DNA of 32,000 nt, from NCBI GenBank assembly GCA_000743035.1, contig CP008936.1, positions 1,620,001-1,652,000 on the forward strand, given 5' to 3'. Shown here piece by piece: positions 6,309 through 28,073 of this stretch. A model generated the notes under the pieces. It ran no database searches. It was not told where the DNA came from and saw only the letters and a list, made by a program, of their open reading frames with translations. A program made the position numbers and the translations under genes. How positions within the stretch are numbered: the stretch's first letter is position 1; every line of letters begins with the position of its first letter. This DNA comes from Candidatus Paracaedimonas acanthamoebae. GTDB taxonomy: Bacteria; Pseudomonadota; Alphaproteobacteria; Caedimonadales; Caedimonadaceae.

Positions 6309-7281
6309 GATTTACAGCTTTATAGATAAGATTTGAAAACAAATTTTCTTCCTCAATGATCACATGGGCATGAATTATTTTTACCTCTTGGCGCACGTCA
6401 TGAGAAAGGCGCAAGAAATCTTTTTCGGTTGTGACCAATTGTGCTTTAAGTTGTTTTGCTTGTACACACAATTCATTTAAATCTCGAGGCTTAAAAAAAT
6501 AATGATCAGGGAAAGCTTTTTCCGCGACTACATGAAGGCCATAGTTACGTAACATCGCAAAAAATTTTTCGGGATGTCCAATGCCTGCAAAAGCATAAAT
6601 AGGTTGATTTCTTAGAGCTTGAATGTCATTTACATGAGGAGTCAGGTCTCCGTGAAAAATGGGGCAAATTCCTCGCCATCTTTTTTCAAGAAGATGATTA
6701 TCTCTTCCCATCATCATTATAATGTTTGCTTTTTTAAGGGCGCTTTCAACCGTTTCACGTAAAGGGCCTGCAGGAAAGATTCGCCCATTTCCTAATCCAT
6801 ATTCGCCATTAACAACAATAATTGAAAAATTTTTGTAAAGATTTGGATTTTGCAATCCATCATCTAGTATCAGAATTTCTGCCCCTGCTTTGGTGGCTGC
6901 TTTAGCGCCTTCAGCTTTGTTTTTAGCGATCCATGTTGGAGCGGTTTGAGCCAGTAAAAGAGGTTCATCTCCTACTTCTGGCGCAGTGTGAAAAACAGGA
7001 TTAACAAGTAAAGGACCCTTTAGTTTTCCACCATATCCTCTTGATAAAATATGAACATTAAAACCTTGCTCTTTCAAAGCTGCGGCAATCATTATGGTGA
7101 CAGGTGTTTTGCCTGCGCCTCCCAAGACTATATTCCCAACACAGATTACAGGGATTTGGACTTTTGTCGTTGTTGCAAATCTTTCTCTTTGAGATGTAAC
7201 CAATCGATATAGGGCTCCAAAAGGTGACAACAGTACTCCCCACAAACTGTCTTCATTTTTCCAAAAAAGAGGGGCTTTCAA
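6292..7281 (-). CDS. lpxK: tetraacyldisaccharide 4'-kinase
   Basis: 329-aa ORF with P-loop VGNIVLGGAGKTP, characteristic of LpxK. The TTG start overlaps the waaA stop (TTGA). Confidence 0.9.
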   Translation of the reverse strand: MKAPLFWKNEDSLWGVLLSPFGALYRLVTSQRERFATTTKVQIPVICVGNIVLGGAGKTPVTIMIAAALKEQGFNVHILSRGYGGKLKGPLLVNPVFHTAPEVGDEPLLLAQTAPTWIAKNKAEGAKAATKAGAEILILDDGLQNPNLYKNFSIIVVNGEYGLGNGRIFPAGPLRETVESALKKANIIMMMGRDNHLLEKRWRGICPIFHGDLTPHVNDIQALRNQPIYAFAGIGHPEKFFAMLRNYGLHVVAEKAFPDHYFFKPRDLNELCVQAKQLKAQLVTTEKDFLRLSHDVRQEVKIIHAHVIIEEENLFSNLIYKAVNHEEKI

Positions 7282-8555
7282 GATTGTTTTCCTATTTCAT
7301 CGAGATAAGGAGATAAAACCGTAATGACTTGCTCAAGTGTTTTATTTTGTGCTGATGCAACCTCAAAAGCTGCTTCAGAGAATTTCTGGCATAAGGGAGG
7401 ATTTTTGAGCAGTTCAGTAACTTTCGCAGCAAGCTGCAAGGCATTCTGAATTTCAATACTTGCTTGATGAGTTTGAAATAATGTGACTAATTCACGTGAT
7501 TTATGGGTGTGAGGTCCATGCAAGATAACAGAATTAAGTAAGGCAGGTTCAATAAGATTATGACCTCCTATGGGAACAAGAGATCCTCCAACAAAAACAA
7601 TGGTGATCAAACGATAAAAAAGCCCTGTTTCTCCTAACGTGTCGCATAGATATATATCAGTATCATTAGAAGGCAATTCTCCAATTGAGCGCCGAGCAAC
7701 TTTAAATTTTTTATTAAGTGTTTCTATGATTTCATTCCCTCTTTCGGGGTGTCGAGGCAAAATGATTGTCAAGAGTTCAGGATAGCTTTGACGAATGAAA
7801 GAGTGAGCCTCAGCGATGAAAATTTCCTCAGAAGGATGAGTGCTTGCAGCCAACCAAACAGGGCGATCCTTAATTTTAGTTTGTAATACTTTCAAATCAT
7901 TTTTTCGATAACTTAATGGCTTAGCCGAGAATTTTAGATTCCCAATCGTAGTAACATTAGAAGCACCCAAAAACTTTAAACGGGATGCTTGCTCAGGAGA
8001 AGGGGAAATGCACAATGCAAAACACTTTAGAAGTGGTTTTATAAAGCTTTTTAACCAAAGCCATCGTTGATATGAACGATCTGAAAGACGCGCATTTAAA
8101 AGAATAAGATTAATTTTTTGAGCCGTTGTTTCTAAAATAAGATTTGGCCAGAGTTCTGATTCAATCCATAAAGCAAGAGAAGGTTTCCAATGAGTGAGGA
8201 AACGTTGAACCCATCTTTTTGCATCTAAAGGAGAAAATTGATGAAAAGCTTTTTTGGGAAGACGTTGGGCTATTAATTTTGCAGAACTGACCGTGCTGGT
8301 AGTTATTAAGAAATATAAAGTGGGATATAATTTATTCAAAAGTTCAATCAAGCTCAAGATCGACAAAGATTCTCCAACGCTTGCTGCATGAAACCAAATT
8401 AAGGGTCCTGGGGGCCTTTTTATAGTAGCAATACCGTACCTTTCAAGGTAACGAACAGAATCTTCCTTACCTTTCTTCAAACGTCGTCGTACATGAAGTT
8501 TAAGCAAAGCCTCTACTAGATAAGATGTCAAAAAACGATACACGGATAAAAGCAT
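7278..8555 (-). CDS. waaA: 3-deoxy-D-manno-octulosonic acid (Kdo) transferase
   Basis: 425-aa ORF. WFHAASVGE and GGSL.P.GGHN.IEPA are motifs of WaaA/KdtA. Confidence 0.92.
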   Translation of the reverse strand: MLLSVYRFLTSYLVEALLKLHVRRRLKKGKEDSVRYLERYGIATIKRPPGPLIWFHAASVGESLSILSLIELLNKLYPTLYFLITTSTVSSAKLIAQRLPKKAFHQFSPLDAKRWVQRFLTHWKPSLALWIESELWPNLILETTAQKINLILLNARLSDRSYQRWLWLKSFIKPLLKCFALCISPSPEQASRLKFLGASNVTTIGNLKFSAKPLSYRKNDLKVLQTKIKDRPVWLAASTHPSEEIFIAEAHSFIRQSYPELLTIILPRHPERGNEIIETLNKKFKVARRSIGELPSNDTDIYLCDTLGETGLFYRLITIVFVGGSLVPIGGHNLIEPALLNSVILHGPHTHKSRELVTLFQTHQASIEIQNALQLAAKVTELLKNPPLCQKFSEAAFEVASAQNKTLEQVITVLSPYLDEIGKQS

Positions 8556-9259
8556 TATTTTCCTTCATCTGCCGGGATAGGTGCATGCCCACAAAGCTGA
8601 TCGACATAATCAGAAATATGACTAAGAGTGGTTTCAACTTTTAATAAAGTTTCATTAATTTCTTCTTCAGTTGCAGAAGATGGGACATAAATTGGATCTC
8701 CTGTAATAAAAATATTTCTGCCAAAAGGAAGGGCAAAAATGAATCGATCCCAAGAATTTATCACTCGTCGGTGTGTGGTTGAATAACTTATTGGAAGAAT
8801 AGGACATCCTGCTAATTTTGCAATCTGTACAACACCTCCTCTTGCTTTAAAACGTGGACCTCGTGGTCCGTCCGGTGTGATTCCAATATAGTTCTGTTCT
8901 TTTAAAAGTCTTAATAAATGACGAAGCGCTTGGGTACCACCTTTTGTTGAAGATCCTGCCACGCTTAAAATTCCATAATGTCTAATAGTTTCTGAAATTA
9001 AAAGGCCATCTCGATGAGCAGAGATTAGCATATGCATTTTATTTTTTTGGCCAGCCCATGAAAAACTCATCATTAATAAACGGTTGTGCCAAAAACAGAG
9101 AATAAAAGGAGTATTCGATTCAAGGAGTTTATCCATGGCTTCTCGGTTAATCCATTGTTGCTTTGAAGTAATAAAAACAAACTTTATGTAATAGGCAATT
9201 AAGTGAGAAAAACCACGAATGATGAAAGGATTTTTTAAAAGTTTTTTGAAAAAGCGCAT
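8555..9259 (-). CDS. DUF374-domain protein (lysophospholipid-acyltransferase-like), conserved partner of msbA/waaA
   Basis: 234-aa ORF with the ITPDGPRGPR motif typical of DUF374. It is packed between msbA and waaA with 0-1 nt spacing. Confidence 0.8.
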   Translation of the reverse strand: MRFFKKLLKNPFIIRGFSHLIAYYIKFVFITSKQQWINREAMDKLLESNTPFILCFWHNRLLMMSFSWAGQKNKMHMLISAHRDGLLISETIRHYGILSVAGSSTKGGTQALRHLLRLLKEQNYIGITPDGPRGPRFKARGGVVQIAKLAGCPILPISYSTTHRRVINSWDRFIFALPFGRNIFITGDPIYVPSSATEEEINETLLKVETTLSHISDYVDQLCGHAPIPADEGK

Positions 9260-11056
9260 TTATTCTTCTCGTGTATTTGGCTCAGTAAATTGAGCTTTAC
9301 AAAGTTGGGCATAACGGGAATTGTTCGTTATTAAGTCTTGATGTTTTCCTGCATCAACCACTTGACCGTTTTCAATCACATAGATGATATCTGCATTCAT
9401 GACGGTCGCTAGACGATGGGCGATAATAAGAGTTGTTCGCCCTTTCATGAGAGTCGTTAAAGCAAGTTTCACTTTTTGTTCAGATTCTGCATCAAGTGCA
9501 GATGTAGGCTCGTCCAATAGAAGAACAGGCGCGTTTTTAAGAATAGCTCTTGCAATTGAAAGACGTTGACGTTGCCCGCCTGAAAGGCGAACCCCATGTT
9601 CTCCAACTTGGGTATCATATCCTTGTGGGAGCTCAATAATAAATTCATGAGCTGCTGCGGCTTTTGCTGCTTCAATAATCGCGTTTTCAGAGGCGCAAGG
9701 ATAACCAAACTCAATATTTTTTCGAATTGTATCATCAAATAAAATGACATCTTGACTTACTAAAGCAATATTTTGGCGCAAGGACGCGAGATTTAGTTGC
9801 CGAACATCAATACCATCAATGGTAATTTCCCCTTCAGTAACATCATAGAAACGAGGGATAAGATTCATGATGGTAGATTTACCCGCTCCACTTGTACCCA
9901 CAAGGGCGACTGTTTTTCCTGCAGGAATTTCAAGAGTAAGGAAGTTAAGGATTGGAGACTCTCTATTGTAAGAAAAATTTACATTATTAAAGCGGATTTT
10001 ACCTTTTGTGATTTGAGCCATTTTTGCTTGAGGTAAATCAATTACTTTTGGTTTTAAATCAAGAAATTCAAAAACACGGCTTGCTGAGGCTAGTTGATCC
10101 TGAAGATTCGCATTTAAATTCGCTAAGCGTTTTAAAGGTTCATACATCATGAGAAGAGCAGTGATAAATGAGAAAAAAGTTCCAGGGTTTTGCTGACCTT
10201 GAACAACAGCGTGCCCTCCATAAATAACGACTATCGCAATAGCAAGGCCGCCTAAGAATTCCATAATAGGATGGGACGCTGCGCGGACTCGAACAGCTTT
10301 TAAATTTTTACGACAAATTTCTTCAATTGTTTCATGAATTTTATGACGTTCATATTTTTCCATACAATAAGATTTAATAAGGCGAATACCCTGAAAAGCT
10401 TGAGTTAAAAGAATTGTAAGTGTTGCCGTTTCCTTCTGAATATTAGCAGAAGCCTTTCGCATTTTTTTGCCAATTTTTACCACTGGTAAAATAGCAATAG
10501 GTACAACAAAAAATGAAATTGAGGCCATAAACCAATCTTGATAAAACATGAATCCAATAAAGCCACTAAGCATCAAGCTATCTTTTCCAATATTGGTTAA
10601 AGTTCCAGTTACAGCGCTGTGTAGCTTAGTGACATCATTCATAAACCGTGAGACAATTTCACCGCTCGGTGTTGCATGATAGAAAGCAAGGTCACCTTCG
10701 ATAAGATGATTAAAAAGGTGAGCTTGAAGGTCGGCAATTATGCGTTGCCCTACATAAGTCATCGTGACAGATTCCGCATACGTGGCAAGACCTTTTAATA
10801 GAAAGACAATACATATTCCTAATGTGAGAGGTAATATCATATTTGCATCTTTGGCAACAAAGATATCATTGATAATAGGCTCAATAAGTTTCGCTGAAGA
10901 AACAGAAGTAGCGGCTACGATCAGCATTGCAAGAAGACCTAGACATATTCGAGCTATATAAGGTCGTGCATAATCCGTAAGAAGTCGCTTAACGAGAAAT
11001 CGCGTTGTTGGATCTCTGAAAGATATTTTCTTCTTTTTTGTCAAAGAATGGCCCAT
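9260..11056 (-). CDS. msbA: lipid A export ABC transporter (ATP-binding/permease fusion) MsbA
   Basis: 598-aa ORF with an N-terminal 6-TM domain, Walker A GTSGAGKST, signature LSGGQRQRLSIARA and Walker B LLLDEPTSALD. It is the first gene of the lipid A/Kdo operon. Confidence 0.9.
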   Translation of the reverse strand: MGHSLTKKKKISFRDPTTRFLVKRLLTDYARPYIARICLGLLAMLIVAATSVSSAKLIEPIINDIFVAKDANMILPLTLGICIVFLLKGLATYAESVTMTYVGQRIIADLQAHLFNHLIEGDLAFYHATPSGEIVSRFMNDVTKLHSAVTGTLTNIGKDSLMLSGFIGFMFYQDWFMASISFFVVPIAILPVVKIGKKMRKASANIQKETATLTILLTQAFQGIRLIKSYCMEKYERHKIHETIEEICRKNLKAVRVRAASHPIMEFLGGLAIAIVVIYGGHAVVQGQQNPGTFFSFITALLMMYEPLKRLANLNANLQDQLASASRVFEFLDLKPKVIDLPQAKMAQITKGKIRFNNVNFSYNRESPILNFLTLEIPAGKTVALVGTSGAGKSTIMNLIPRFYDVTEGEITIDGIDVRQLNLASLRQNIALVSQDVILFDDTIRKNIEFGYPCASENAIIEAAKAAAAHEFIIELPQGYDTQVGEHGVRLSGGQRQRLSIARAILKNAPVLLLDEPTSALDAESEQKVKLALTTLMKGRTTLIIAHRLATVMNADIIYVIENGQVVDAGKHQDLITNNSRYAQLCKAQFTEPNTREE

Positions 11057-11970: not shown

Positions 11971-12825
11971 CTAAATGAGGGGAAAAGTCCTTTCTGCTAA
12001 CTGTAAAAAATGCTCAGGGTCAAGATGATCTTCGAGATTCCAACAAATTGCGAGAATGAGACGAACAAAATACCATTGTCTCACGTTCTCAAGTGAGTAA
12101 TTAAAATAGCTTGCTATATATTCTGTATCTGAAGCTGGATCAACAATAAACGCCCAAGTTTCACTTACGGGTGGTCCAATGACTCCTTGGGGGTCAATAA
12201 CAACCCACTCTTTATCTTGTAAAAGAATATTATCATGATGCAAATCCCAATGCAGGAGAACATATGATTGCGAATAATTAAGTAGTTTATCTTTTAAAAA
12301 ACGAGCTTTTACAAGGTATTCTGTAGGAATATTCCATTCTTTATCTAAAATTTTTAAAAGATCACTTATTGAGGGAAATAAGGTTTTGGAATTTTGAGAG
12401 AGAGGTGCCTGGTGAAGTCTTCCCATAATTTGGCACATCACAAGTCGGGCTTCATCCTTTCGTTCTGGAAGATATGTTTTTAAAGAGTAACCAGGGATAA
12501 GTTGTTCTAATAGAAGGGTGTGCGTATCTGAGTTAAGAACTCGAACGGCACCATAATTTTTAAATATTTTCAAAATCGCCGTTTCTTTATATAAACGTTC
12601 CTCATCGAGGGACAGTTTGAGCACAACAGGCTTTTCTTTTTGAAAACCAGATAAGACATAGTTATAAGTCATTGTCTCTATAGGTCGGAGGTTATTCAAA
12701 TCCCAAGCTTGGGCGATTTGTTGTACGAGTGTTGGAAGTTGGCGGAGCCATTTTTGTCCCCTGCTGCCATAAATGCTTATGATATTTTGCTCAAAGGTAT
12801 TCATGATTTTTACCTGCTTATGCAT
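11971..12825 (-). CDS. aminoglycoside phosphotransferase family protein, APH(6)/StrB-like
   Basis: 284-aa ORF. LLHWDLHHDNILL followed by VVIDPQGVIGP parallels HGDLHHENI...VIDPVGLVGE of APH(6). The second ATG at 12804 has the better SD (AGCAGGT). Confidence 0.75.
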   Translation of the reverse strand: MHKQVKIMNTFEQNIISIYGSRGQKWLRQLPTLVQQIAQAWDLNNLRPIETMTYNYVLSGFQKEKPVVLKLSLDEERLYKETAILKIFKNYGAVRVLNSDTHTLLLEQLIPGYSLKTYLPERKDEARLVMCQIMGRLHQAPLSQNSKTLFPSISDLLKILDKEWNIPTEYLVKARFLKDKLLNYSQSYVLLHWDLHHDNILLQDKEWVVIDPQGVIGPPVSETWAFIVDPASDTEYIASYFNYSLENVRQWYFVRLILAICWNLEDHLDPEHFLQLAERTFPLI

Positions 12826-18686: not shown

Positions 18687-19139
18687 TTATTTCCCGGTTT
18701 TAGTATCTTCTTTACGCCCTGCTCGCCCAAAATTTCCAAATATTTGATGGAGGAGTGGTCGTTCATGGCCTGCAGAAGGGGTGATATCAGGGCTAGGATT
18801 AATCTCTTCTTCAGGTGTTGTTTTTAGTAAAACTTCTTTTACTTTATCAGTCACGTCAAAACGAATTATTATAAGCTTTTGCTCAAGAGATTGAGGTTCG
18901 AAGAAAGATAGACTTTCTGTTACCTTATAATAATAGATCCATGTATTTTCATCAAAAAGTGTAGTACTTGAGGGGCTTCCAAGTGTGCGTAATACATCTT
19001 CTTTAGTATCATAACCGGCCTTTATTTTTTGCACTTCAGTCAGATCTGGTAGTTTCCCGCGATGATCAATGCGGGAGCTGCAGCCAGCAAGCATAAGAAA
19101 AGAGCTTATAAGAAAACAAAAACTTAAATTTCCAACCAT
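18687..19139 (-). CDS. bamE: outer membrane assembly lipoprotein BamE (SmpA/OmlA)
   Basis: Lipobox LMLAGCSS followed by an SmpA/OmlA-like segment (KIKAGYDTKEDVLRTLGSPS....DENTWIYYY). The likely start is the ATG at 19137-19139; the track ORF extends to 19184. Confidence 0.75.
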   Translation of the reverse strand: MVGNLSFCFLISSFLMLAGCSSRIDHRGKLPDLTEVQKIKAGYDTKEDVLRTLGSPSSTTLFDENTWIYYYKVTESLSFFEPQSLEQKLIIIRFDVTDKVKEVLLKTTPEEEINPSPDITPSAGHERPLLHQIFGNFGRAGRKEDTKTGK

Positions 19140-19283
19140 AAAGTTCTCATTAATTAAATGTTTGAATACGCGTTGACTTTGCACGTCAATTCATAAAAGT
19201 CAATATAGCTTAGGACATAAAACTTGCCTTTCACAATAAAAATTCTTATAAATTTAAGAAAATTATGGGAGTTTCCTAATAAA

Positions 19284-19982
19284 ATGATTCTAACTTGTCC
19301 TTCTTGTCAGAAACGTTATATGATTGAGTCACGCGAAATTGGCTCAAAAGGAAGACTTGTTCGGTGTGTTGCTTGTCGCCATACCTGGCACCAACAATTA
19401 GATGAAGACATGTCAGCTTTGGCAGACTTAACAGCAGACTTCTTTTCTGAGAAAGAAAATACAGTTATATCAAAACGGCATCCTACAATTTGGATCCTTA
19501 TGGTTGCTGGATTAATACTTCTCTTGGGGTCATTGTTAATGGCTCGAAATACAATTGTCTCTCATTGGCCAAGTACAGAAAAAATTTTTTCAAAAATTGG
19601 TTTTTCCACCTCAAACCCTACTGAAGGCTTACAAATAGAAAATATTACGCCTATGCAGCTTACCCATGGAACGGATGCAATGATTGTTCTCAAGGGTGAC
19701 CTTGTGAATACCTCTTCTTTAATTCGCACGATTCCTACTTTGCATATCATTGTAAAAGGCGATTGTAAGGGAGCTCCTTTGGCATCTCAGATAAAAATGC
19801 AATTAAAGCAAACATTGGCAAAGATGGTGAAAAGTTCTGTAATAAGTGATGGGCTTTGCACTCTAGAAGAATGGGATTATAATCTTTCTGAGTCACGTTT
19901 ATTTCCTTCTGAGCGTTTAAGCTTTGAAACAACACCCCATGCTATGGTAGAAGGCGCAAAAGACATTACAGTTGAATTTTAG
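19284..19982 (+). CDS. MJ0042-type zinc-ribbon protein with one TM segment (DUF3426-like)
   Basis: MILTCPSCQKRYMIES......LVRCVACRHTW is the MJ0042 zinc-finger signature common in alphaproteobacteria, followed by a TM helix. The track ORF starts at 19224 (TTG). Confidence 0.75.
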   Translation: MILTCPSCQKRYMIESREIGSKGRLVRCVACRHTWHQQLDEDMSALADLTADFFSEKENTVISKRHPTIWILMVAGLILLLGSLLMARNTIVSHWPSTEKIFSKIGFSTSNPTEGLQIENITPMQLTHGTDAMIVLKGDLVNTSSLIRTIPTLHIIVKGDCKGAPLASQIKMQLKQTLAKMVKSSVISDGLCTLEEWDYNLSESRLFPSERLSFETTPHAMVEGAKDITVEF

Positions 19983-19991
19983 GAGGTCTTT

Positions 19992-20603
19992 ATGTCTTTA
20001 ACATCTTCACCGGTTGTCACCGCGATTTCTTGGGATGCATTTTTCCAGTCTGAATTAAAAGAACATTTAATGGTGGCTGAAGACACTCAAAAGAGTATGC
20101 AAAACCAATTTATATCTCTCGTTGAAATGGCAATTAACACTTTGCAAAAAGGGGGGAAAATAATCTTTTTTGGAAATGGGGGAAGTGCTGCTGATTCCCA
20201 GCATTTGGCGACAGAACTAACTGTTCGGTATCGTAAAAATCGTGCCGCTCTTGCTGCGCTTGCATTAACGACAGATACTTCTGCGCTAACAGCAATTGGA
20301 AATGACTTTGGTTTTGATCACCTTTTTGAAAGACAGATAGAAGCACTTGCCAAGCCAGATGATCTTATCATTGGAATTACAACATCAGGTAAAAGCCCCA
20401 ATGTTATTTTAGCATTTAAAAAGGCGCAAGCGTTGGGACTTAAGACGGTTGCTTTTACCGGGGGAACAGGTGGAGAATTACCAGGAATAGTCGATTTAAT
20501 ACTTTGTGTTCCTTCATTTACAACGAGTCGTATCCAAGAAATGCATATCACTTTGGGACAAATGTTGTGTGGGGCATTGGAAGATTTCTTTGCTAACTCT
20601 TAA
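19992..20603 (+). CDS. gmhA: D-sedoheptulose-7-phosphate isomerase (SIS domain)
   Basis: 203-aa ORF with FFGNGGSAADSQHLATEL and TTSGKSPNV motifs. It lies directly upstream of hldE. Confidence 0.9.
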   Translation: MSLTSSPVVTAISWDAFFQSELKEHLMVAEDTQKSMQNQFISLVEMAINTLQKGGKIIFFGNGGSAADSQHLATELTVRYRKNRAALAALALTTDTSALTAIGNDFGFDHLFERQIEALAKPDDLIIGITTSGKSPNVILAFKKAQALGLKTVAFTGGTGGELPGIVDLILCVPSFTTSRIQEMHITLGQMLCGALEDFFANS

Positions 20604-20611
20604 GGTTCATT

Positions 20612-22102
20612 ATGTTCTCTTCTTCAAATTTTGACCATTATTTAGATAATTTAGCTCACACTCATTTGTTGTGTCTAGGCGACATAATGCTTGATTGCTT
20701 CATTTATGGTCGAGTGGAACGCATTTCTCCTGAAGCCCCCGTTCCTGTATTTCACATGAATCATAAAACAATGTCTGTAGGAGGAGCAGGAAACGTCGTA
20801 CGGAATCTATGTGCGCTTGGCGTTGAAACTTCTTTTTGTGGCATGATTGGTAAGGATAATGAAGGAGAAGAATTAAAGAAATTAATCGATGGGCTCCCTA
20901 AAACGGCAGGATGCTTGATTCAAGATGCTCATCGACCCACAACGCACAAAATACGCTATCTGGCCCATAACCAACAAATACTTAGAGCAGATAATGAGGC
21001 AACCTTTCCCCTTTCTTTAGAGCTTCAAAATCAAGTAATACAGTATTTTCAAACACAGCTATTTTTAGTTAATGGCGTCATTTTTTCAGATTATGGCAAA
21101 GGAATGTTACCTCCTACGCTTCTGAAAGAGTTAATTTCTCTAGCAAAACAAGCAGGAAAGCCTGTTATTGTGGATCCTAAGGGCTCAGATTACAGTATTT
21201 ATCGTGGGGCAACAGTTCTTACACCTAACTTGCGCGAGCTTGCTCAGGCAACACATATGCCAGTTACTAAAGATAATGAAATTGTTGAGGCAGCTTTAAG
21301 CTTGATCAATAAATATGAGATTAATGCTGTTCTTGTTACGCGTAGCGAACAAGGCATGAGCTTAATTCGTGCGCATCAAGAGCCCTTCCATATTCCAACA
21401 CACGCTATAGAGGTATTTGATGTTTCGGGGGCGGGCGATACGGTTATAGCGGCATTTTCGGCAACTTTGTTAAGTGGTGCTTCTTTTGAAGAAGCTGCTT
21501 ATCTTGCAAATGTGGCAGCTGGTCTTGTTGTCGCAAAGGTGGGGACGGCAACTGTTAGTTCAGAAGAGGTACAAAATCTTATAAAAAAGAAAGATATCTC
21601 TCCTATAAAAAATAAGAATTTAAACCGTTTAGAAGCAAACGATATTGTTATTCAATGGAAACGTCAGGGATTGAAAGTTGGGTTTACAAATGGATGTTTT
21701 GATCTTCTTCATCCAGGGCATATAGCGCTTTTGCAAAAGGCAAGATCAAAGTGTGACAAGCTAATTGTAGGGTTGAACAGCAATGCTTCAATTCAGCGTC
21801 TGAAAGGTCCGCAACGACCTATACAATCTCAAGAGGCTAGAGCAACTGTTTTAGCTTCTTTAGAGATGGTCGATATGGTTGTCGTTTTTGAAGAAGATAC
21901 GCCGATAAATCTTATTCATACAGTGCGTCCCGATGTTCTTGTAAAAGGTGCCGATTATACGATTGATAAAGTCGTTGGAGCCCGCGAAGTCCAAAGTTGG
22001 GGAGGTGAAGTTTTATTAATTGAATTAATCCCTGAACAAAGCACAACAAGAACCGTCCATAAAATAAAAGAAGCTCAACAAAGCCCAAGCCAAGTAGCAT
22101 AA
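20612..22102 (+). CDS. hldE: bifunctional D-beta-D-heptose 7-phosphate kinase / D-beta-D-heptose 1-phosphate adenylyltransferase
   Basis: 496-aa ORF. N-terminal ribokinase-like domain (DVSGAGDTV) and C-terminal cytidylyltransferase domain (GFTNGCFDLLHPGH). Confidence 0.92.
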   Translation: MFSSSNFDHYLDNLAHTHLLCLGDIMLDCFIYGRVERISPEAPVPVFHMNHKTMSVGGAGNVVRNLCALGVETSFCGMIGKDNEGEELKKLIDGLPKTAGCLIQDAHRPTTHKIRYLAHNQQILRADNEATFPLSLELQNQVIQYFQTQLFLVNGVIFSDYGKGMLPPTLLKELISLAKQAGKPVIVDPKGSDYSIYRGATVLTPNLRELAQATHMPVTKDNEIVEAALSLINKYEINAVLVTRSEQGMSLIRAHQEPFHIPTHAIEVFDVSGAGDTVIAAFSATLLSGASFEEAAYLANVAAGLVVAKVGTATVSSEEVQNLIKKKDISPIKNKNLNRLEANDIVIQWKRQGLKVGFTNGCFDLLHPGHIALLQKARSKCDKLIVGLNSNASIQRLKGPQRPIQSQEARATVLASLEMVDMVVVFEEDTPINLIHTVRPDVLVKGADYTIDKVVGAREVQSWGGEVLLIELIPEQSTTRTVHKIKEAQQSPSQVA

Positions 22103-22203: not shown

Positions 22204-22830
22204 TCATTCAATCGTTAGCATATCTGAAAATTGATGATTAACATCGCGATGCTTGCATTCATCATTGCGGATCACAACAATAAGATCCTTGAGCCGCGCT
22301 GTTGGTGAAAGGTTCCAATAACCTCGAGCAATTTGAGGAATCTCGCAATTGGCCATTCTGCCTTCTTCAACTTCTTTTAAATATTGCGTGTAACTTACCA
22401 CTGCTTCTTCCTCAAGATAGCCAACAAGACGATGAGCAGTTCTTGCAGAACAAATATATAAGATCAAATACAAGGTATAAAAAATGCCTTGTGCGGCTAT
22501 AATAAGTAATCTTTCAAGAGTACTGGGTTGGGCAATATGAATGAATGTCATTAGGTGCATTCTTTCGTTTTCTGCTTCATCTAAAAGTTCTTTTATCCAT
22601 CCATGATCATCTTCGATTTTTCTTAGAGATCTTAAATGGCGTAACATGCCGGCAATCATGCCAGGAATAGCCGCAACCGTTTCTAAGACAACAGCGCGAT
22701 GGCCATATCTTTTCTTAAAGAAAGCATCGGCAAATAAACGCATAAATTTTACAATGCAAAGAGCAATACGATCTTGAATGGTTTTTGGTTTGCGGTGGAC
22801 TTTTAAAGGGTATAACTGAGTCATCAACAT
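22204..22830 (-). CDS. aox: alternative oxidase (cyanide-insensitive di-iron ubiquinol oxidase)
   Basis: 208-aa ORF with all four iron-binding motifs in order: LETVAAIPGM, ENERMHLMTF, YLEEEAVVSYT and RNDECKHRDVNH (compare the eukaryotic LET, NERMHL, LEEEA, RADEA.HRDVNH). Confidence 0.9.
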   Translation of the reverse strand: MLMTQLYPLKVHRKPKTIQDRIALCIVKFMRLFADAFFKKRYGHRAVVLETVAAIPGMIAGMLRHLRSLRKIEDDHGWIKELLDEAENERMHLMTFIHIAQPSTLERLLIIAAQGIFYTLYLILYICSARTAHRLVGYLEEEAVVSYTQYLKEVEEGRMANCEIPQIARGYWNLSPTARLKDLIVVIRNDECKHRDVNHQFSDMLTIE

Positions 22831-22916: not shown

Positions 22917-23633
22917 TCATTTTAAAATATGACTTAGCGCTAATGCATCATAAGGAGCATGACAGCGTCGTGTATTATTGAAATAAAGCCAAGTATTTTC
23001 TGCTTTTGACGTTCTTATTCGTTTGGACCATTCTTCTAGAATTTCTTTTTCATAATGAGGTTCATAAGTTGGGCTTCCATGAAAGCGTATATATAATTCA
23101 GGTTGATTGGGAATAATAATCTCTGGAACATTCATGCCACTGACACTGCAAATTGTAATGTTTGCTAATTTGCATGCTTTAAAAACATGGGAATCCCACC
23201 AGCTTGGGTGCCGAAATTCTAAAACATTTTTGTAAAAAGGATCTAATTGAGCAAGAATGTGCTCTAGATTTTCCCGTGTAAAGATCAAACTTGGCGGCAG
23301 TTGAAATAAAAAGCAACCCATCTTTTCCTGGAGAATATCACATAGGTTATAGGTTTGTTTAATCCAGTCTTGGGCTTCATTAAACTTTAATTTATGAGTG
23401 ATCATATGATGTGCTTTAATCGTGAATTTAAATCCTAAAGGGGCTGTTTGATACCACTTTAAAACCGTTTTTGAAGAAGGATATTGATAAAAAGTGCTAT
23501 TAACTTCGACTGTATTGAAATGATTTACATAAAAATGTAAGTGATCTTGGGGTTTTAAATTTAAAGGATAAAATTTTCCCATCCATTCTCGATAACTCCA
23601 TCCAGCACAACCAATATAAATGTTATGAGCCAT
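22917..23633 (-). CDS. DUF72 (YecE/UPF0759) family protein
   Basis: 238-aa ORF. IYIGCAGWSY..W.GKFYP, FNTVEVNSTFY and FEFRHPSW are typical of DUF72. Confidence 0.85.
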   Translation of the reverse strand: MAHNIYIGCAGWSYREWMGKFYPLNLKPQDHLHFYVNHFNTVEVNSTFYQYPSSKTVLKWYQTAPLGFKFTIKAHHMITHKLKFNEAQDWIKQTYNLCDILQEKMGCFLFQLPPSLIFTRENLEHILAQLDPFYKNVLEFRHPSWWDSHVFKACKLANITICSVSGMNVPEIIIPNQPELYIRFHGSPTYEPHYEKEILEEWSKRIRTSKAENTWLYFNNTRRCHAPYDALALSHILK

Positions 23634-23661
23634 AGAGGAGAATGAAAATATTTCTTATTTC

Positions 23662-23862
23662 TCAAATATAATTCTGTTCTTGATCTTTCCAGTTATTTAA
23701 CTTAGTAAAGGACGCATCTTGAGGATCAAAAAAATCCTTTAATTCTGGATAACTCAAATTATTTCCTCTTATTTCATTTACAGAGGGGTAAGTGTGCCCA
23801 AGAGGCTTTGTAATAAAATATAGTGCCAAAAAAAATAACGCTGTAAGTATGACTCTATTCAT
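23662..23862 (-). CDS. small hypothetical secreted/membrane protein (66 aa)
   Basis: Strong SD (AAGGAG 8 nt upstream of the ATG) and an N-terminal hydrophobic segment (ILTALFFLALYFI). It is 28 nt upstream of the DUF72 gene on the same strand. Confidence 0.55.
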   Translation of the reverse strand: MNRVILTALFFLALYFITKPLGHTYPSVNEIRGNNLSYPELKDFFDPQDASFTKLNNWKDQEQNYI

Positions 23863-24247
23863 TTGAAAGCTCCTTTATTTTATTTTTAATATAAAAGGAG
23901 AAGCTCGGAAGTGAGAATTTGAGAGATTAAAGAAATTTAAACTTCTTAGCGAAGCTTATCAATCAAAGGATCCAATTTATTGCAACCATGAAATATAAAA
24001 AATTGTTGTCAAATAGTTGAATCATTATTTTATAGAGTTAGATTAAAACTTGGATCGTATTAAATATTATTAAAAATATACATAGTATGTTTGGAAATAG
24101 TAACTTCTATGAATTTAGAAAAAAGAAAGAAAATATAAAATTTATAAAAAATATTTAATTGTTTTATCCATATTTGACAAGAATCTTCTTATTCAGTAAA
24201 TGAAATCAGCAATTTTTTTGGTGAAAAATAAATTTTTGAAAAAAAAG

Positions 24248-24275
24248 TTGACAACTATCAATGATAGTATATTTA
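24248..24275 (+). promoter_or_regulatory. putative sigma70 promoter with an embedded tetO-like palindromic operator, upstream of the 24330 cluster
   Basis: TTGACA (24248-24253), perfect palindrome ACTATCA-A-TGATAGT (24254-24268), then TATTTA (24270-24275) at a 16-nt spacer. An A8 run sits immediately upstream. A second candidate is TTGACA-17 nt-TAAATG at about 24174-24202. Confidence 0.5.
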
Positions 24276-24329
24276 CATAAGCAGGTAAGCTAAAATTTAA
24301 GACAATTTGTGTATATAAGGAAAATTATA

Positions 24330-25019
24330 ATGAAGAATTTTGCGCAAAATATCTCTTTTTTCAAAACCCTTAGTGTTTGCATAATTCTTTCTGGTTTTGG
24401 CATAAATGTCTTTAAGTGTGCAGCGAGTGCGCTCGGAGAGGAAGCTGCAGAAGATGTTAATATTGGGGGAGCAAGCTCTTCGGTACCTATGGTAATTCCC
24501 CCTCTAAATTTGTTTGAATCCGACATTACATCACAGTCCCCAACGTTACGCCCCATCCCGATCCCATCTCTAAAAGAGCTGAAAGGTCAAATTTTTTGGC
24601 ATGAGTTCATAATATTAGATGAAAAGAGTGACAGTCGCGAAAACAAAAGGCTCAAAGCGCAGGATGCATTTATTGCAGTGACTGACTTGGCGACTATGTT
24701 TGAAGAGGAATTTGAAAAGGATAAGTATCAGACTATTTTTTCTGGAACAAATTTTAAGCAAGTTTTATCAGAAGAGAAGGTGAGGATGAAACTCATCTTG
24801 AAGGGCCAAGAATTTGAAATAGCAGGATTCAGTGATGCATTGTTAGGAGCTTTAGATCAGTGGGTCACATTGAAAGAGTGCTTTTTTAGTCTTAACAAAG
24901 CCGTAACATTGCTTCGTAATCGGATTCATGAAGATTATACTAAAGAACAAGAATATATCGCTCGTATTGCTTTTTTAACTAAATTGAAAAAAAATGGGAA
25001 GACGAATGTCAATCTTTAA
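24330..25019 (+). CDS. hypothetical secreted protein, upstream segment of a gene split at an A8 tract
   Basis: SD AAGGA (24317-24321) plus an ATG at 24330. Signal-like N-terminus MKNFAQNISFFKTLSVCIILSGFGINVFKCAASA. No recognisable family. The reading frame terminates 25 nt after the A8 run. The track start is GTG at 24309. Confidence 0.6.
   Translation: MKNFAQNISFFKTLSVCIILSGFGINVFKCAASALGEEAAEDVNIGGASSSVPMVIPPLNLFESDITSQSPTLRPIPIPSLKELKGQIFWHEFIILDEKSDSRENKRLKAQDAFIAVTDLATMFEEEFEKDKYQTIFSGTNFKQVLSEEKVRMKLILKGQEFEIAGFSDALLGALDQWVTLKECFFSLNKAVTLLRNRIHEDYTKEQEYIARIAFLTKLKKNGKTNVNL
24987..24994 (+). repeat. homopolymeric A8 tract at the junction of two reading frames
   Basis: ttgAAAAAAAAtgg. 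The 0 frame reads L K K N G...stop. The -1 frame is open from 24983 and reads ..K K W E D E C... through to 25351. Confidence 0.9.
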
Positions 25020-25090
25020 TAACAAATGGTTCTGCGTCCGGAAGCACTAACCAACAATCTTCAATAGTAAGTCCCAGAGAACTTGAGCAG

Positions 25091-25351
25091 TTGCAGTCTC
25101 AAAATCAAGATTTAAGGATAAATATTGCAACGTTCGAAAGGGCTAATCAACAATTAAACTTGGAAAATCAAACGCTTCGAGCTCGGGTCTCTCAACTTGA
25201 AAAAGAGGCACTGGATAATCGTCAAGAAGATCACGTGGCTATTCCGGTTGGTGCAGAGCCTAAGAAAAGACTTTCTTTTTGGGGATGGATTGTGAGCTTG
25301 TTTCAGAGGTCCCCATCTACAGTAAATGAAACAACCAAACTTATACAATAA
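25091..25351 (+). CDS. coiled-coil segment, probably the downstream (-1 frame) part of the 24330 gene rather than an independent gene
   Basis: The ORF has no ATG or Met anywhere. The track start is a TTG without a convincing SD. The frame is open upstream to 24983, overlapping the A8 tract. It has heptad-like Q/L/E/N-rich sequence and ends in the hydrophobic LSFWGWIVSLF. Confidence 0.45.
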   Translation: MQSQNQDLRINIATFERANQQLNLENQTLRARVSQLEKEALDNRQEDHVAIPVGAEPKKRLSFWGWIVSLFQRSPSTVNETTKLIQ

Positions 25352-25361
25352 GGAGTAAACT

Positions 25362-26207
25362 ATGAAAAAACAAACTATTTACACAATGATATGTGGCTTA
25401 ATGATGTCAAGTGCATCAATGGCTTCATCTAACTTAAAAGACGAGTTTTCAACACCAGAAAAAAAACGTATCACACAAGTAACGGTAGGTCTCACTCCTT
25501 ATTCTAAAGCAATTGTAGAAGAACAAGTAAAGGCTTCTCTAAGACAAGAAAGACAGGAAAAAAAAGCAACTGAAGAATCTAGGGTAGCAAGAAGGCTTGT
25601 ATTAGAAGAAGCTGACGAAAAAGTTAAGCTTGAAGAGGCGAAACATAAAATTCAAATGAAAGAATTAGAAGAAAAACTTCAAGCTTTAAATCTTTCAAAA
25701 ACATCGAGTGAAAAAGAATTACAAGACCTTCGTAAAGAAAATGAGGAATTAAGACAAAGCAAGGAAGATCTTTCGACTCAACTGAAGAAAATTGAACAGG
25801 ATATTCAATTAAAGACAACAGAATTTGCAGAATTAGAAAAAGGTCATAAAGAAGTGCAAACAGCTCTTACGACTGCAAAAGCAACAGCAACCCAAGATGC
25901 TGAAAAAATTCAACAATTAGAAGGAAGCAAAAAAAGCCGTGAAGCAGCCTTGAAAATTTTGAGTGATTCTCTTGCGCTTGCTAGACAAGAGAAGGCTGAA
26001 GTAGTTGCTAAGTTAAATATAAAAGAACAAGAAGAAGCAGAATCAAAGGCGCAAGTTGCACTTAAGGAAGCAGAATTGAAACGTACTCAAGAAGAATTGT
26101 CTCTCGTGAAACAATATGTTTTTGAGGCTCCGACATCAACAACTGCTTCGACTTCAAAGCCTTCTCCAAATTCAAAGGCGCCTGGAAAAAAGAATATATT
26201 GGATTAA
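25362..26207 (+). CDS. secreted coiled-coil protein (E/K/Q-rich), no recognisable family
   Basis: SD AAGGAG (25350-25355) overlaps the preceding stop. Signal peptide MKKQTIYTMICGLMMSSASMA/SS, then about 220 aa of heptad-like charged sequence and an S/T/P-rich tail (APTSTTASTSKPSPNSKAPGKK). Confidence 0.75.
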   Translation: MKKQTIYTMICGLMMSSASMASSNLKDEFSTPEKKRITQVTVGLTPYSKAIVEEQVKASLRQERQEKKATEESRVARRLVLEEADEKVKLEEAKHKIQMKELEEKLQALNLSKTSSEKELQDLRKENEELRQSKEDLSTQLKKIEQDIQLKTTEFAELEKGHKEVQTALTTAKATATQDAEKIQQLEGSKKSREAALKILSDSLALARQEKAEVVAKLNIKEQEEAESKAQVALKEAELKRTQEELSLVKQYVFEAPTSTTASTSKPSPNSKAPGKKNILD

Positions 26208-26248
26208 TGATTATAGAGGTTGAGCTTAATAAGCATTAATGCTAACAG

Positions 26249-26304
26249 GAAACAGGTTTAAATTCTTTTTATTTTATAAGGATGAGAACCTGTTTCATTT
26301 TTTT
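26249..26304 (+). terminator. putative rho-independent terminator after the coiled-coil gene
   Basis: 10-bp stem GAAACAGGTT (26249-26258) / AACCTGTTTC (26287-26296) followed by a T7 run (26298-26304). The 28-nt loop is unusually large. Confidence 0.45.
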
Positions 26305-26332
26305 GTACTAAATAAAGTGCATTGGGGCGCAA

Positions 26333-27103
26333 ATGTTGAGAAAAGTATTATACTGTTGGTTTTCTCTTTTATTTAATCTATCTCTTGCTCATGCGACCAC
26401 ATGGGAGAATCTTCAGCCTTTCAAATGGCCAACTTGCATTGTACCTCAGAATGAATGGCGTTTTGGTGTTGGAATAGGTGTCGAATATCTTAACCTTCAA
26501 GCAAAAGTAAAAGATGATTTTTCACCTTTTGGCGCTGTGCAATTTGGGGATCGAGATCAAACTCAAAAACACTTTCAAGTTTCCCCATCCTTAGAAATAG
26601 GGAAGACGAGTTGCAATAATTACTATACAGGACTTGTTGTAAGTTGGCATTATTCTGGAATAAAAAAAGAGTCAAGAGCCCCGTTAAAACTCACGACTTA
26701 CTTTACCCATCAATTTAAGATGGCCTATTATTTAGATGTTTTGGCTAAACTTGGGTATAAAGTTACTTCAGAAACAATGGCTTATATGCTTGTGGGGCCT
26801 TCTATGGTGAAGTGGTCACACACAACAAAGCAAATTACCGAGCAAACACTGGAAGATACTTTTAAGATGTCTCAAACAAGTATCGGCTTAGGGGTAGGCT
26901 TAGGAGTAGAACAAGTTATTGGTCAAAATGTAGCTTTAAGCATAAATTATACCCATCATTTTTATAAAAATGAGAAAAAACAAAAGATTATGTCCATCAT
27001 AGATAATGTAGGGTATGGTCCATTCCCACGCTCAGGCATTATTTCTAAAAAAATAACGCCATCTTCTGATGCTATTACCCTGCGTTTAACCTACTTTTTC
27101 TAA
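26333..27103 (+). CDS. outer-membrane beta-barrel protein (OMP_b-brl / surface-antigen-like)
   Basis: Signal peptide ending ..LSLAHA/TT, alternating hydrophobic/polar strands (e.g. FGVGIGVEY, IGLGVGLGVEQ, ALSINYTHHF) and a C-terminal ..ITLRLTYFF with terminal Phe, the typical OMP signature. Confidence 0.75.
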   Translation: MLRKVLYCWFSLLFNLSLAHATTWENLQPFKWPTCIVPQNEWRFGVGIGVEYLNLQAKVKDDFSPFGAVQFGDRDQTQKHFQVSPSLEIGKTSCNNYYTGLVVSWHYSGIKKESRAPLKLTTYFTHQFKMAYYLDVLAKLGYKVTSETMAYMLVGPSMVKWSHTTKQITEQTLEDTFKMSQTSIGLGVGLGVEQVIGQNVALSINYTHHFYKNEKKQKIMSIIDNVGYGPFPRSGIISKKITPSSDAITLRLTYFF

Positions 27104-27428
27104 ATTATCGTCAGCTCCTCTTATTACATGAGAAGACAAGCACTATTTTAGGCAAATCGTGCTTTATTTTAAGAATATTCCAAGCTTATAAGGGGATTTC
27201 TGTTATTGCTTCTCAGGCGTGATCAAGTGCCGAACAATAGTAAGCTTGAAATGCGCGAGCTTGTGTTTTGCTTTCTTAAAGCATATCACGGCGTACTGAT
27301 CCTCATTTCCCATGGCGAAGTTTTCCTGGCTGAGATCGGTATGCGTTTCACATATCGAATTCATGATGGTTGTACAGGCCATCAACACGATTTATAGTGA
27401 ACTATAATAAGGGATAAAGGAAATTAAA

Positions 27429-28073
27429 GTGTTTAGTAATTATCGTGATTCGATCATTATCAAAGATCATCTTAAATGCCGCCATATTATTGCAGGAGAT
27501 TACTCTTACTATTCTGGCTATTATCATGGGAAGTCTTTTGAAGAGTGTGTCATGTATTTGGATGAGCTTGATAATCATCATGATCCTACGACAACAGATC
27601 GGCTCATTATGGGAAAGTTTTGCTCAATTGCCACAGGCGTTAAATTTATGATGGGAGGAACGCAAGGTCATAACTATGAGTGGATTGCAGCTTACCCTCT
27701 AGATTCTTTTGACGATGATTTTGATGGATATACGAATACGCCACCTAAAGCTCATAAATGCAAAGGAGATACAATCCTTGGAAATGATGTATGGATTGGC
27801 GCCGAAGCCATGATCATGCCTGGGGTTCATATTGAAGATGGAGCTGTTATTGCGGCACGCGCAGTGGTGACAAAGAAGGTTGGGCCCTATGAGATTTGAG
27901 GTGGAAATCCTGCTAAATTGATTAAAAAACGTTTCTCAGATGAGCACATTGATAAACTCTTACAGATAAAATGGTGGGATTGGGATTTAGAGATACTCAA
28001 GCGAAATCTCCCCTTACTGCGCGCGAAAGATGTGGATGTTTTGTGGAGTAAATTGAAGCAAGGAACCTTATAA
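27429..28073 (+). pseudogene. Vat/XAT-family (streptogramin A / xenobiotic) hexapeptide acetyltransferase interrupted by a single in-frame TGA
   Basis: GTG start with [67 protein letters not shown] and ..GPYEI match Vat proteins. After the TGA at 27897-27899 the same frame continues GGNPAKLIKKRFSDEHIDKLLQIKWWDWDLEILKRNLPLL...QGTL and ends at TAA 28071-28073. The total is 214 sense codons plus the internal TGA, within the normal Vat length range. Confidence 0.8.

Follow-up and report, generated by a model that had tools for sequence, protein, structure and literature searches.

A fast-evolving cassette of two orphan coiled-coil genes and a small outer-membrane barrel gene in Candidatus Paracaedimonas acanthamoebae and related alphaproteobacteria

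Introduction

Do three adjacent genes of the alphaproteobacterium Candidatus Paracaedimonas acanthamoebae, two of them coding for coiled-coil proteins with predicted signal peptides and the third for an outer-membrane beta-barrel, form a unit, and could such a unit act where the bacterium meets its host? The genes, named A, B and C here, lie in a stretch of 32,000 nucleotides (positions 1,620,001 to 1,652,000 of contig CP008936.1, assembly GCA_000743035.1), which is called the window and has a GC content of 37.3%. An initial annotation, made from the letters of this DNA, had proposed a surface-display or host-interaction module in which the barrel serves as anchor or exporter for the coiled-coil proteins. 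To our knowledge, the host interaction of Holosporales-type protist endosymbionts is scarcely known, and Holospora is the only one of them in which determinants of the envelope or surface have been defined. The nearest named relatives of the window proteins come from two metagenome-assembled genomes of alphaproteobacteria of the Holosporales type, 'Caedibacter sp. 38-128' and '37-49'. Loci of relatives are designated by L numbers and single proteins by P numbers.

A conserved three-gene unit

The three genes are arranged as follows.

24330 to 25351, plus strand: gene A, frameshifted; open reading frame (ORF) 24330-25019 plus the -1 frame to 25351, 340 aa when restored.
25362 to 26207, plus strand: gene B, 281 aa; signal peptide MKKQTIYTMICGLMMSSASMA, coiled coil and S/T/P/K-rich tail.
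26333 to 27103, plus strand: gene C, 256 aa, outer-membrane beta-barrel; signal peptide ending in LSLAHA before TTW, C-terminus LRLTYFF.

At least 11 lineages show the order A, B, hairpin, C, which is set in five genomic contexts unrelated to one another. Because the trio recurs in this way, A, B and C form a genuine unit, conserved among a small group of alphaproteobacteria that resemble protist symbionts. Synteny in relatives had been named beforehand as a test of the proposed module, and it was found. In the window, L002, L006, L015, L017, L018, L019, L021 and L027, the trio lies between alternative oxidase (AOX) and DUF72 genes on one side and a HisPhos gene on the other. Flanks of the window type also occur in L002-L005 and L014 (38-128), in L006 to L008, in L015 and L025 (37-49), and in L027/L023. 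Elsewhere, the trio is placed between DUF1467 and thymidine kinase (L009), between YdjM and GroES (L011), between DnaK-DnaJ and a flavin monooxygenase (L013), or in yet another context, with an A protein of 433 aa (L016). This phyletic range is a lower bound, the scan of genome contigs having used a single narrow peptide pattern that returned three loci. Between lineages with differing flanks, A and B can barely be aligned, while their order and domain layout, and in most cases their size, are kept. The B protein measures 281-311 aa in most lineages (251 in L017), and most A orthologues have 229-344 aa (433 in L016). No report of such a module was found in literature searches.

Proteins A and B

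The ATG at 24330, conserved in relatives, is the start codon of gene A; the upstream GTG at 24309 is not kept as a start. Its frame 0 holds an ORF of 229 aa with a stop at 25019, 25 nt past a homopolymer run. Three features within the gene deserve to be listed.

24987 to 24994, plus strand: A8 homopolymer, the 1-nt frameshift site of gene A; A9 would be in frame.
24330 to 24428, plus strand: constant leader of A, a predicted Sec signal peptide of about 33 codons, MKNFAQN.SF.KTLSVC.I.SGFGIN..KC.AS.
25271 to 25303, plus strand: Trp/Phe-rich hydrophobic segment of A, LSFWGWIVSLF; consensus in the alignment [LF]S[FL]W.W[IF]..LF.

A single extra A in the run fuses the two halves of the gene, and the frame then ends at 25351. 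The orthologues P0002, P0003 and P0017-P0020 are unsplit, have 309-344 aa and align from end to end. The 119 codons of the downstream frame were open in only 6 of 20,000 shuffles (p about 3e-4), and the other two frames contain 7 and 9 stops. Since the downstream frame is still open, the lesion is not old decay: gene A has been put out of frame here by a mutation that inactivated it recently, by a reversible ON/OFF slip or by an error of sequencing. At the equivalent site, the relatives carry just A6 or K-rich codons, with no conserved tract, and have other tracts elsewhere. A phase-variable contingency gene was considered and set aside, as the tract is not conserved among relatives. For the same reason, and because A_AAA_AAT would be a poor slippery heptamer, programmed frameshifting or phase variation at A8 is treated as a bare possibility. 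Runs of A8 or T8 are clustered in this region: five of the six in the whole window fall within 1.7 kb (23828-25565), at 23828, 24239, 24987, 25459 and 25558, one of them being the frameshift site.

Protein A begins with the leader, which is probably cleaved in the C-A-A-S-A region according to the -3/-1 rule. The match of P0021 with the A profile is confined to residues 1-47. The leader is followed by an acidic, Pro-rich spacer and by a small helical domain in which FW.E.I.L and FFSLN are conserved. Two heptad segments come next, at about residues 156-214 and 250-296. At the C-terminus, a Trp/Phe-rich segment of 10-13 residues precedes a short ETTKLI tail. Distant orthologues have GFWSWILGLF at this place (L009) or a full hydrophobic tail of 23 residues (L011). 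When the segment was modelled as an amphipathic helix, its hydrophobic moment (muH) ranged from 0.05 to 0.63 across orthologues. The segment may bind a membrane.

In gene B, the Shine-Dalgarno sequence AGGAG overlaps the TAA of gene A (25349-25351). The leader of its product, MKK.TIYT.., can be recognised down to the most distant orthologues, and is followed by a conserved N-terminal segment of about 40 residues (TP...TPYS) with invariant T and P positions. Heptad-like repeats were scored over at least residues 96-219 of the window protein. The residues E, K, Q, R and D make up 43% of protein B, and its tail is rich in S, T, P, A and K. The initial description of A as a split signal-peptide protein whose restored end is a coiled coil with a hydrophobic tail, and of B as a signal-peptide coiled coil with an S/T/P-rich tail coupled to A through its Shine-Dalgarno sequence, was confirmed in every part.

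Neither protein A nor protein B was assigned to a family by searches of Pfam, NCBIfam, PDB sequences, PADLOC and PHROGs. The profile of A, built from three sequences, retrieved 8 clusters from 1.84 billion representative proteins, every one of them from the same clade. Protein B matched itself alone in a word-indexed set of 5.8 billion proteins, and the Pfam scan of 8 B orthologues gave signal-peptide and coiled-coil noise only. Profiles of both proteins retrieved generic coiled-coil noise from the PDB sequences (GCN4, bZIP, BST2, M protein and Lpp, E >= 0.006). The PADLOC and PHROGs scans of the trio gave nothing meaningful save a weak Lom match of the barrel. By these sequence searches, A and B are true orphans without a described family.

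The barrel protein C

The absence of a recognisable family, initially claimed for the whole trio, stands for A and B and fails for C. Protein C is a borderline match to the PF13505 (OMP_b-brl) profile, with 28.4 bits against a cutoff of 28.7 (E = 2.2e-6). In the output of the C search, 11 of 12 proteins, the window protein included, carry a precomputed PF13505 assignment. An identical barrel gene is present in the sequencing run SRR29001150. Two of the 11 homologues found are named 'porin family protein' or 'opacity protein-like surface antigen' by their sources. The AlphaFold2 (AF2) model of C (pLDDT 82.6, pTM 0.72) consists of 8 long antiparallel strands, at residues 42-62, 74-93, 97-119, 122-143, 148-169, 172-197, 200-224 (kinked) and 231-255. 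Foldseek matched this model with probability 1.00 to OmpA-TM, Ail, NspA and OmpX (TM-score <= 0.62 on the target), and further to OpcA and to a Legionella 'porin I' seen around the Dot/Icm machine. The signal peptide and the C-terminal aromatic beta-signal, both required in the small-barrel class, are present. Protein C is a new member of the PF13505/COG3637 small-barrel family and not an orphan: the 256-aa barrel ending in TYFF was described correctly, but it belongs to the generic OmpA/Opa/Ail/Lom-like small barrels.

The small barrels of this class (Opa, Omp25/Omp31, Ail/OmpX/Lom, NspA and the OmpA N-terminal domain) share with C the signal peptide, the 8 strands, the C-terminal aromatic residue and variable external loops, besides the matches in sequence and fold. 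In contrast to them, the strands of C are unusually long (about 20-25 residues), its close relatives share a periplasmic N-terminal extension of about 20 residues (TWENLQ.FKWPTC.IPQN.W), and the gene is always preceded by two coiled-coil genes. We know of no coiled-coil gene partnership of this kind in the small-barrel family, and literature searches found none between barrel and coiled-coil genes. The variable columns of C are concentrated in the membrane-distal halves and loops, where conservation averaged 0.59 as against 0.73 (Mann-Whitney p = 1e-4), the topology being assumed from the standard rule for outer-membrane proteins. Barrels of the 8-stranded OmpA/OmpX class are membrane anchors or adhesin scaffolds and form no protein-conducting channel. 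Of the two roles initially offered for the barrel, that of an anchor is plausible, while that of an exporter is rejected because an 8-stranded pore is too narrow for a folded coiled coil.

Evolutionary rates and replacement of the cassette

Ten flanking genes of the window and of L002 (38-128) share 78-96% amino-acid identity. For C the value is 77%, for A 38% (tblastn) or 44% (global alignment), and for B 36-38%. In this comparison, the dN/dS of A and B is 0.3-0.6 and that of the flanks 0.03-0.3, and vertical descent combined with fast evolution of the proteins could account for the cassette of the window. In every pair of genomes, DNA identity is 85-94% over the last 200 nt or so of the spacer and the A leader, falls to about 50% directly past the leader and rises again shortly before C.

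The same rate excess is found in L006 and L027, a pair related by vertical descent. The dS values of flanks (0.22-0.33) and cassette (0.09-0.25) are comparable, while dN/dS is 0.05-0.17 in the flanks, 0.23 in C, 0.32 in A and 0.63 in B. A and B are thus intrinsically fast, yet not neutral. In one stretch of 50 codons of B, dN is about equal to dS. In the 38-128 population, contigs from different samples were compared over 2.2-3.3 kb, and gene B holds every difference among them. The variants are a nonsense change from AAG to TAG at codon 243 (L005 9670) and an in-frame deletion of 21 nt in L004 (equivalent to L002 9695-9715).

A different pattern was found between L002 and L017. The flanks of these loci are about 95% identical, with 88-99% amino-acid identity and a dS of 0.12-0.39, whereas the cassette proteins share 38% (A), 24% (B) and 59% (C) with a dS of 1.3-2.2. 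Nucleotide identity is 96% through the A leader, collapses to 44% some 100 nt into the gene (codon ~33), at the predicted signal-peptide cleavage site, stays near 40% across A and B, reaches 55-77% across C and returns to about 90% directly after the C stop. The L017 barrel is 53-58% identical to each of the other barrels of the close group and so is equidistant from them. Because the cassette dS so exceeds that of the flanks, L017 carries a whole-cassette allelic replacement, or an ancient allele that was retained, bordered by the constant leader and the 3' flank. Allele divergence far above the flanks together with sharp recombination borders, the signature of a variable locus, is found in this pair.

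The AOX gene beside the cassette is an outlier in dS (0.85 as against 0.22-0.33 in L006/L027, and 0.39 as against 0.12-0.16 in L002/L017) and has the lowest dN/dS in both pairs. A cassette younger than its flanks in L006/L023, suggested by AOX alone, was dismissed, since five more flanking genes, with a dS of 0.22-0.33, match the cassette.

Conserved non-coding elements

The non-coding parts of the locus contain four elements of interest.

23863 to 24329, no strand assigned: AT-rich spacer 5' of gene A, 467 bp, 21.8% GC, defined by composition.
24232 to 24329, plus strand: near-invariant block of putative promoter and 5' untranslated region (5'UTR), with A8, TTGACA at 24248-24253, a leader RNA of ~60 nt and the Shine-Dalgarno sequence AAGGA at 24317-24321.
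26212 to 26247, no strand assigned: conserved block 5' of the B-C hairpin, AGGTTGAGCTTAATAAGCATTAATGCTAACAGG, with the palindrome GCATTAATGC at 26233-26242.
26248 to 26305, plus strand: B-C hairpin followed by T7, resembling an intrinsic terminator; hairpin 26248-26296 with an 11-bp outer stem, T7 at 26298-26304.

The AT-rich spacer had been noted before with a length of 445 bp, which counts to the GTG at 24309; the conserved ATG at 24330 gives the length listed here. A spacer of comparable length also precedes gene A in relatives. In an alignment of four genomes, about 85% of the columns in the last ~120 nt before the ATG of A are invariant, while the proteins encoded downstream are 34-44% identical, and the ~100 nt preceding the ATG are almost invariant in six genomes. 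An exact 23-nt motif of the promoter block retrieved nothing but gene A loci from the JGI metagenomes. The TTGACA block is presumably the promoter of gene A, and a second conserved TTGACA lies further upstream at 24174-24179. A sigma-70 scan found no convincing -10 element at the proper distance from the invariant TTGACA.

The hairpin and T7 between B and C had been described correctly. The 136-nt B-C spacer folds with -32.3 kcal/mol (z = -3.2). The hairpin is kept in four close genomes, including one compensatory pair in L006, and a strong hairpin was present in every lineage examined; six other lineages have one of unrelated sequence at the same place, with z = -4.6 to -8.7. The block at 26212-26247 is nearly invariant in four genomes despite the adjoining hypervariable 3' end of B, and could be a promoter of C or a protein-binding site. 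Since the hairpin is only about 36 nt away from the ATG of C, expression of this gene probably relies on read-through or on a promoter that overlaps with the conserved block. No Rfam family was found over 23600-27450.

Possible roles of the cassette

These features suggest a role of the trio at the cell surface or at the host interface. We tentatively favour, with a confidence somewhat short of even, an outer-membrane-anchored coiled-coil assembly at the outer interface of the symbiont, with the barrel as anchor rather than exporter; its export, assembly, localisation and function are what we infer from the genes. In such an assembly, A and B would be exported by Sec, and the 8-stranded barrel of C, its tall hairpins on the outside, would be inserted in the outer membrane and serve as the membrane anchor. 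A could be held to a membrane by its short Trp-rich C-terminal segment, while B could dock via its conserved N-terminal ~40 residues and extend a long stalk of coiled coil that ends in a disordered tail. The three proteins would make up a fibrous outer-membrane-associated assembly facing the host cytoplasm or vacuole, exposed either on the surface or after periplasmic release. Changing selection at this interface may cause the mature parts of A and B to evolve fast, and recombination may occasionally replace the cassette, using the invariant promoter and leader and the conserved 3' flank as anchors. The highly conserved promoter and 5'UTR would set expression, and the hairpin with its T-run would lower or separate that of C.

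An assembly at the outer interface is favoured because a constant promoter and leader precede a fast-evolving mature body, the genes were replaced jointly with sharp borders, the loops of the barrel vary and null alleles are tolerated. Surface antigens, receptors and other loci on which external selection keeps changing typically show this set of features, and housekeeping periplasmic tethers do not. The maintenance of one architecture despite almost no sequence identity lends further support. A precedent, by analogy only, is offered by Holospora, of the same order, whose Sec-exported periplasmic proteins reach the outside of the cell when it infects (PMC11909080). The surface or host-interaction module initially proposed thus keeps part of its ground, as an interface role would agree with the fast evolution of A and B and with the single swap of the whole cassette, while the hairpin indicates that the three genes are not simply co-transcribed. 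Among known systems, the trio behaves most like a recombining variable surface-protein locus, a likeness that is put forward as a functional analogy. The loci of streptococcal M protein (emm), Wolbachia wsp and Neisseria opa and porA offer counterparts to its constant promoter and leader, divergent coiled coil, sharp-bordered recombinational replacement and OMP loop variation. Unlike them, the trio has no homology to these antigens, no cell-wall anchor and no autotransporter domain, belongs to a diderm, has a whole-gene dN/dS below 1 and is only putatively surface-exposed.

Several points weigh against such an assembly. We know of no route across the outer membrane for Sec-exported coiled coils that lack a dedicated translocator, and no outer-membrane translocator is encoded at the locus. 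Surface placement and the interaction of A, B and C are predictions from sequence and model alone. The AF2 model of the A orthologue P0002, built on three sequences, has a single helix of ~80 residues (182-260) and a pLDDT of 43, a low confidence that makes it uninformative on the fold. Judging from the hairpin and T-run, C is unlikely to be simply co-expressed with A and B. In the comparison of the window with L002, the dS of the cassette (0.8-1.3) exceeds that of the flanks (0.4-0.7) only modestly, and only one cassette swap is unambiguous. In no comparison does whole-gene dN/dS reach 1, so relaxed constraint on the coiled coils accounts for much of the rate excess, and the frameshift in A and the nonsense allele of B could equally fit dispensable genes.

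The main alternative, a somewhat unlikely one, is a periplasmic spacer or tether, in which A, anchored in or on a membrane, and the rod of B would link the barrel to the inner membrane or peptidoglycan and so take the part that Lpp, OmpA or TolA play elsewhere, in a lineage lacking them. Length and coiled-coil character alone would then be constrained, hence the fast drift in sequence. The conserved lengths of most A and B orthologues, the low whole-gene dN/dS, the Sec signal peptides, the missing translocator and the envelope and lipopolysaccharide (LPS) genes nearby in the window all agree with this, as does the account of coiled-coil spacers that keep length while diverging in sequence, given in the review PMC5082667. 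Lpp, TolA domain II and other periplasmic coiled-coil spacers resemble A and B as exported, outer-membrane-associated coiled coils of kept length and free sequence. They differ in that A and B have no lipobox, conserved C-terminal Lys or TolA domain III, are narrowly distributed, and occur as swapped and null alleles. A Braun-type tether between outer membrane and peptidoglycan was rejected for either protein, as no [LVI][ASTVI][GAS]C motif is present and the terminal residue varies (D, K, E, I, F, L), Lys ending only some B orthologues; the Cys in the B leader is absent from L009, L013 and L016. Housekeeping tethers, moreover, are not normally swapped as divergent alleles between near-identical genomes with borders exactly at the cleavage site and the barrel stop; frameshift, nonsense and indel alleles are tolerated here; and tethers, when essential, are usually widespread, whereas this family is limited to a very small clade. 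It is less likely that A and B would be stored in the periplasm and delivered to the host at infection or lysis, with C as a linked, co-varying outer-membrane protein or release site. Delivery would agree with the signal peptides, the fast evolution and the richness in coiled coil, an architecture typical of proteins directed at a host, and with the tail-anchor-like C-terminus of A, a full hydrophobic segment of 23 residues in L011. The release of periplasmic proteins by infecting Holospora (PMC11909080) is a precedent for this as well, again by analogy only, homology of A and B to those proteins having been neither tested nor found. Against delivery, no secretion-system genes are linked to the trio in any of the five contexts, folded proteins cannot pass an 8-stranded barrel, and the hydrophobic tail of A counts just 10-13 residues in most orthologues. 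Three adjacent lineage-specific genes with no functional link, A and B being decaying orphans, would explain the frameshifted A of the window, the B nonsense allele in L005, the terminator-like hairpin parting C from A-B and the elevated dN/dS. This is very improbable and disfavoured, since adjacency and order survive five unrelated contexts, intact ORFs of conserved architecture exist in at least 10 other lineages, gene A still has an open frame past its frameshift, promoter and leader hardly vary, the dN/dS of 0.3-0.6 lies far under the neutral value, and A, B and C were replaced jointly in L017.

Other known systems were compared with the trio. Skp/OmpH are likewise exported helical proteins encoded near envelope-biogenesis genes, but A and B are about twice the size of Skp and do not lie beside bamA/lpxD. 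B was rejected as a Skp/OmpH protein (~160 aa), since no PF03938 match at E <= 1 was obtained in 8 orthologues of 281-311 aa, which also have other neighbours; A gave no PF03938 match at E <= 0.1. Membership in this family, which would have spoken against the initial proposal, is thus not borne out by profile searches for either protein. Trimeric autotransporter adhesins (type Vc) also pair coiled-coil stalks with an outer-membrane barrel, whereas the barrel of the trio is a separate 8-stranded protein, and YadA-anchor, head and neck repeats are lacking. A type V autotransporter was dismissed, as A and B carry no YadA_anchor or Autotransporter domains in Pfam and NCBIfam and the barrel has its own gene. 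A polymorphic toxin-immunity cassette was likewise dismissed: all A alleles have one architecture (spacer, helical domain, coiled coil, Trp-rich tail), and no toxin or immunity domains were found in the trio with Pfam, NCBIfam and PADLOC.

A bolder form of the outer-membrane-anchored assembly, and an unlikely one, is that A and B represent a novel diderm surface fibril, made of Sec-exported heteromeric coiled coils on a dedicated 8-stranded barrel. Such a fibril would do without an autotransporter, usher, lipid anchor or any of the type I to type IX secretion machineries. It might form a strain-specific layer for host recognition or evasion in Holosporales-like endosymbionts, and hence be exchanged as a cassette.

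Neighbouring genes

The 467-bp spacer of the trio is preceded by the divergent AOX (22204-22830) and DUF72 genes and an ORF of 66 aa (23662-23862, minus strand). This small ORF, divergent from gene A, has a hydrophobic N-terminal leader and is kept in relatives as annotated genes of 65-75 aa, with 79% identity in L002; it gave no family match. Envelope and LPS genes are abundant at 5397-11056 (minus strand) and 18687-22102. They include an LpxL-like acyltransferase, LpxK, Kdo transferase, a DUF374 acyltransferase, an MsbA-like ABC exporter, BamE, a SIS-domain gene (GmhA-like) and a PfkB/CTP_transf_like gene (HldE-like).

Downstream of the barrel gene, positions 27429-28073 (plus strand) contain a hexapeptide-repeat acetyltransferase gene (Pfam Hexapep), Vat/CatB-like by the motif ...VGPYEI*GGNPAKLIKKRF, which is broken by an in-frame TGA at 27897-27899. 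Relatives lack this gene entirely, and in them His_Phos_1 comes right after the barrel gene. The acetyltransferase gene seems to have been inserted in this lineage only and to have since decayed to a pseudogene. A phosphotransferase of the APH(6)/hydroxyurea-kinase family is encoded at 11971-12825 (minus strand), so that two genes of antibiotic-modifying type are found within a small symbiont-like genome. A few kb 3' of the cassette, relatives have genes for an S24 LexA-like peptidase and for a GerE/NB-ARC/TPR (STAND-type) protein of ~1100 aa (L002 15141+, L006 13395-16694, L021 7764-11090); the window stops short of the equivalent position.

Significance

The trio is an undescribed envelope cassette with unusual evolutionary dynamics. 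With a constant expression signal and leader, two fast-evolving proteins predicted to be exported and a dedicated barrel, the locus offers a compact and concrete candidate for the symbiont-host interface. If A and B are periplasmic spacers, they would constitute an unusual structural element of the envelope, strain-variable and dispensable. If they are exposed, they might represent a new mode of coiled-coil display on a diderm surface, and would provide a marker for strain typing and a handle on host specificity.

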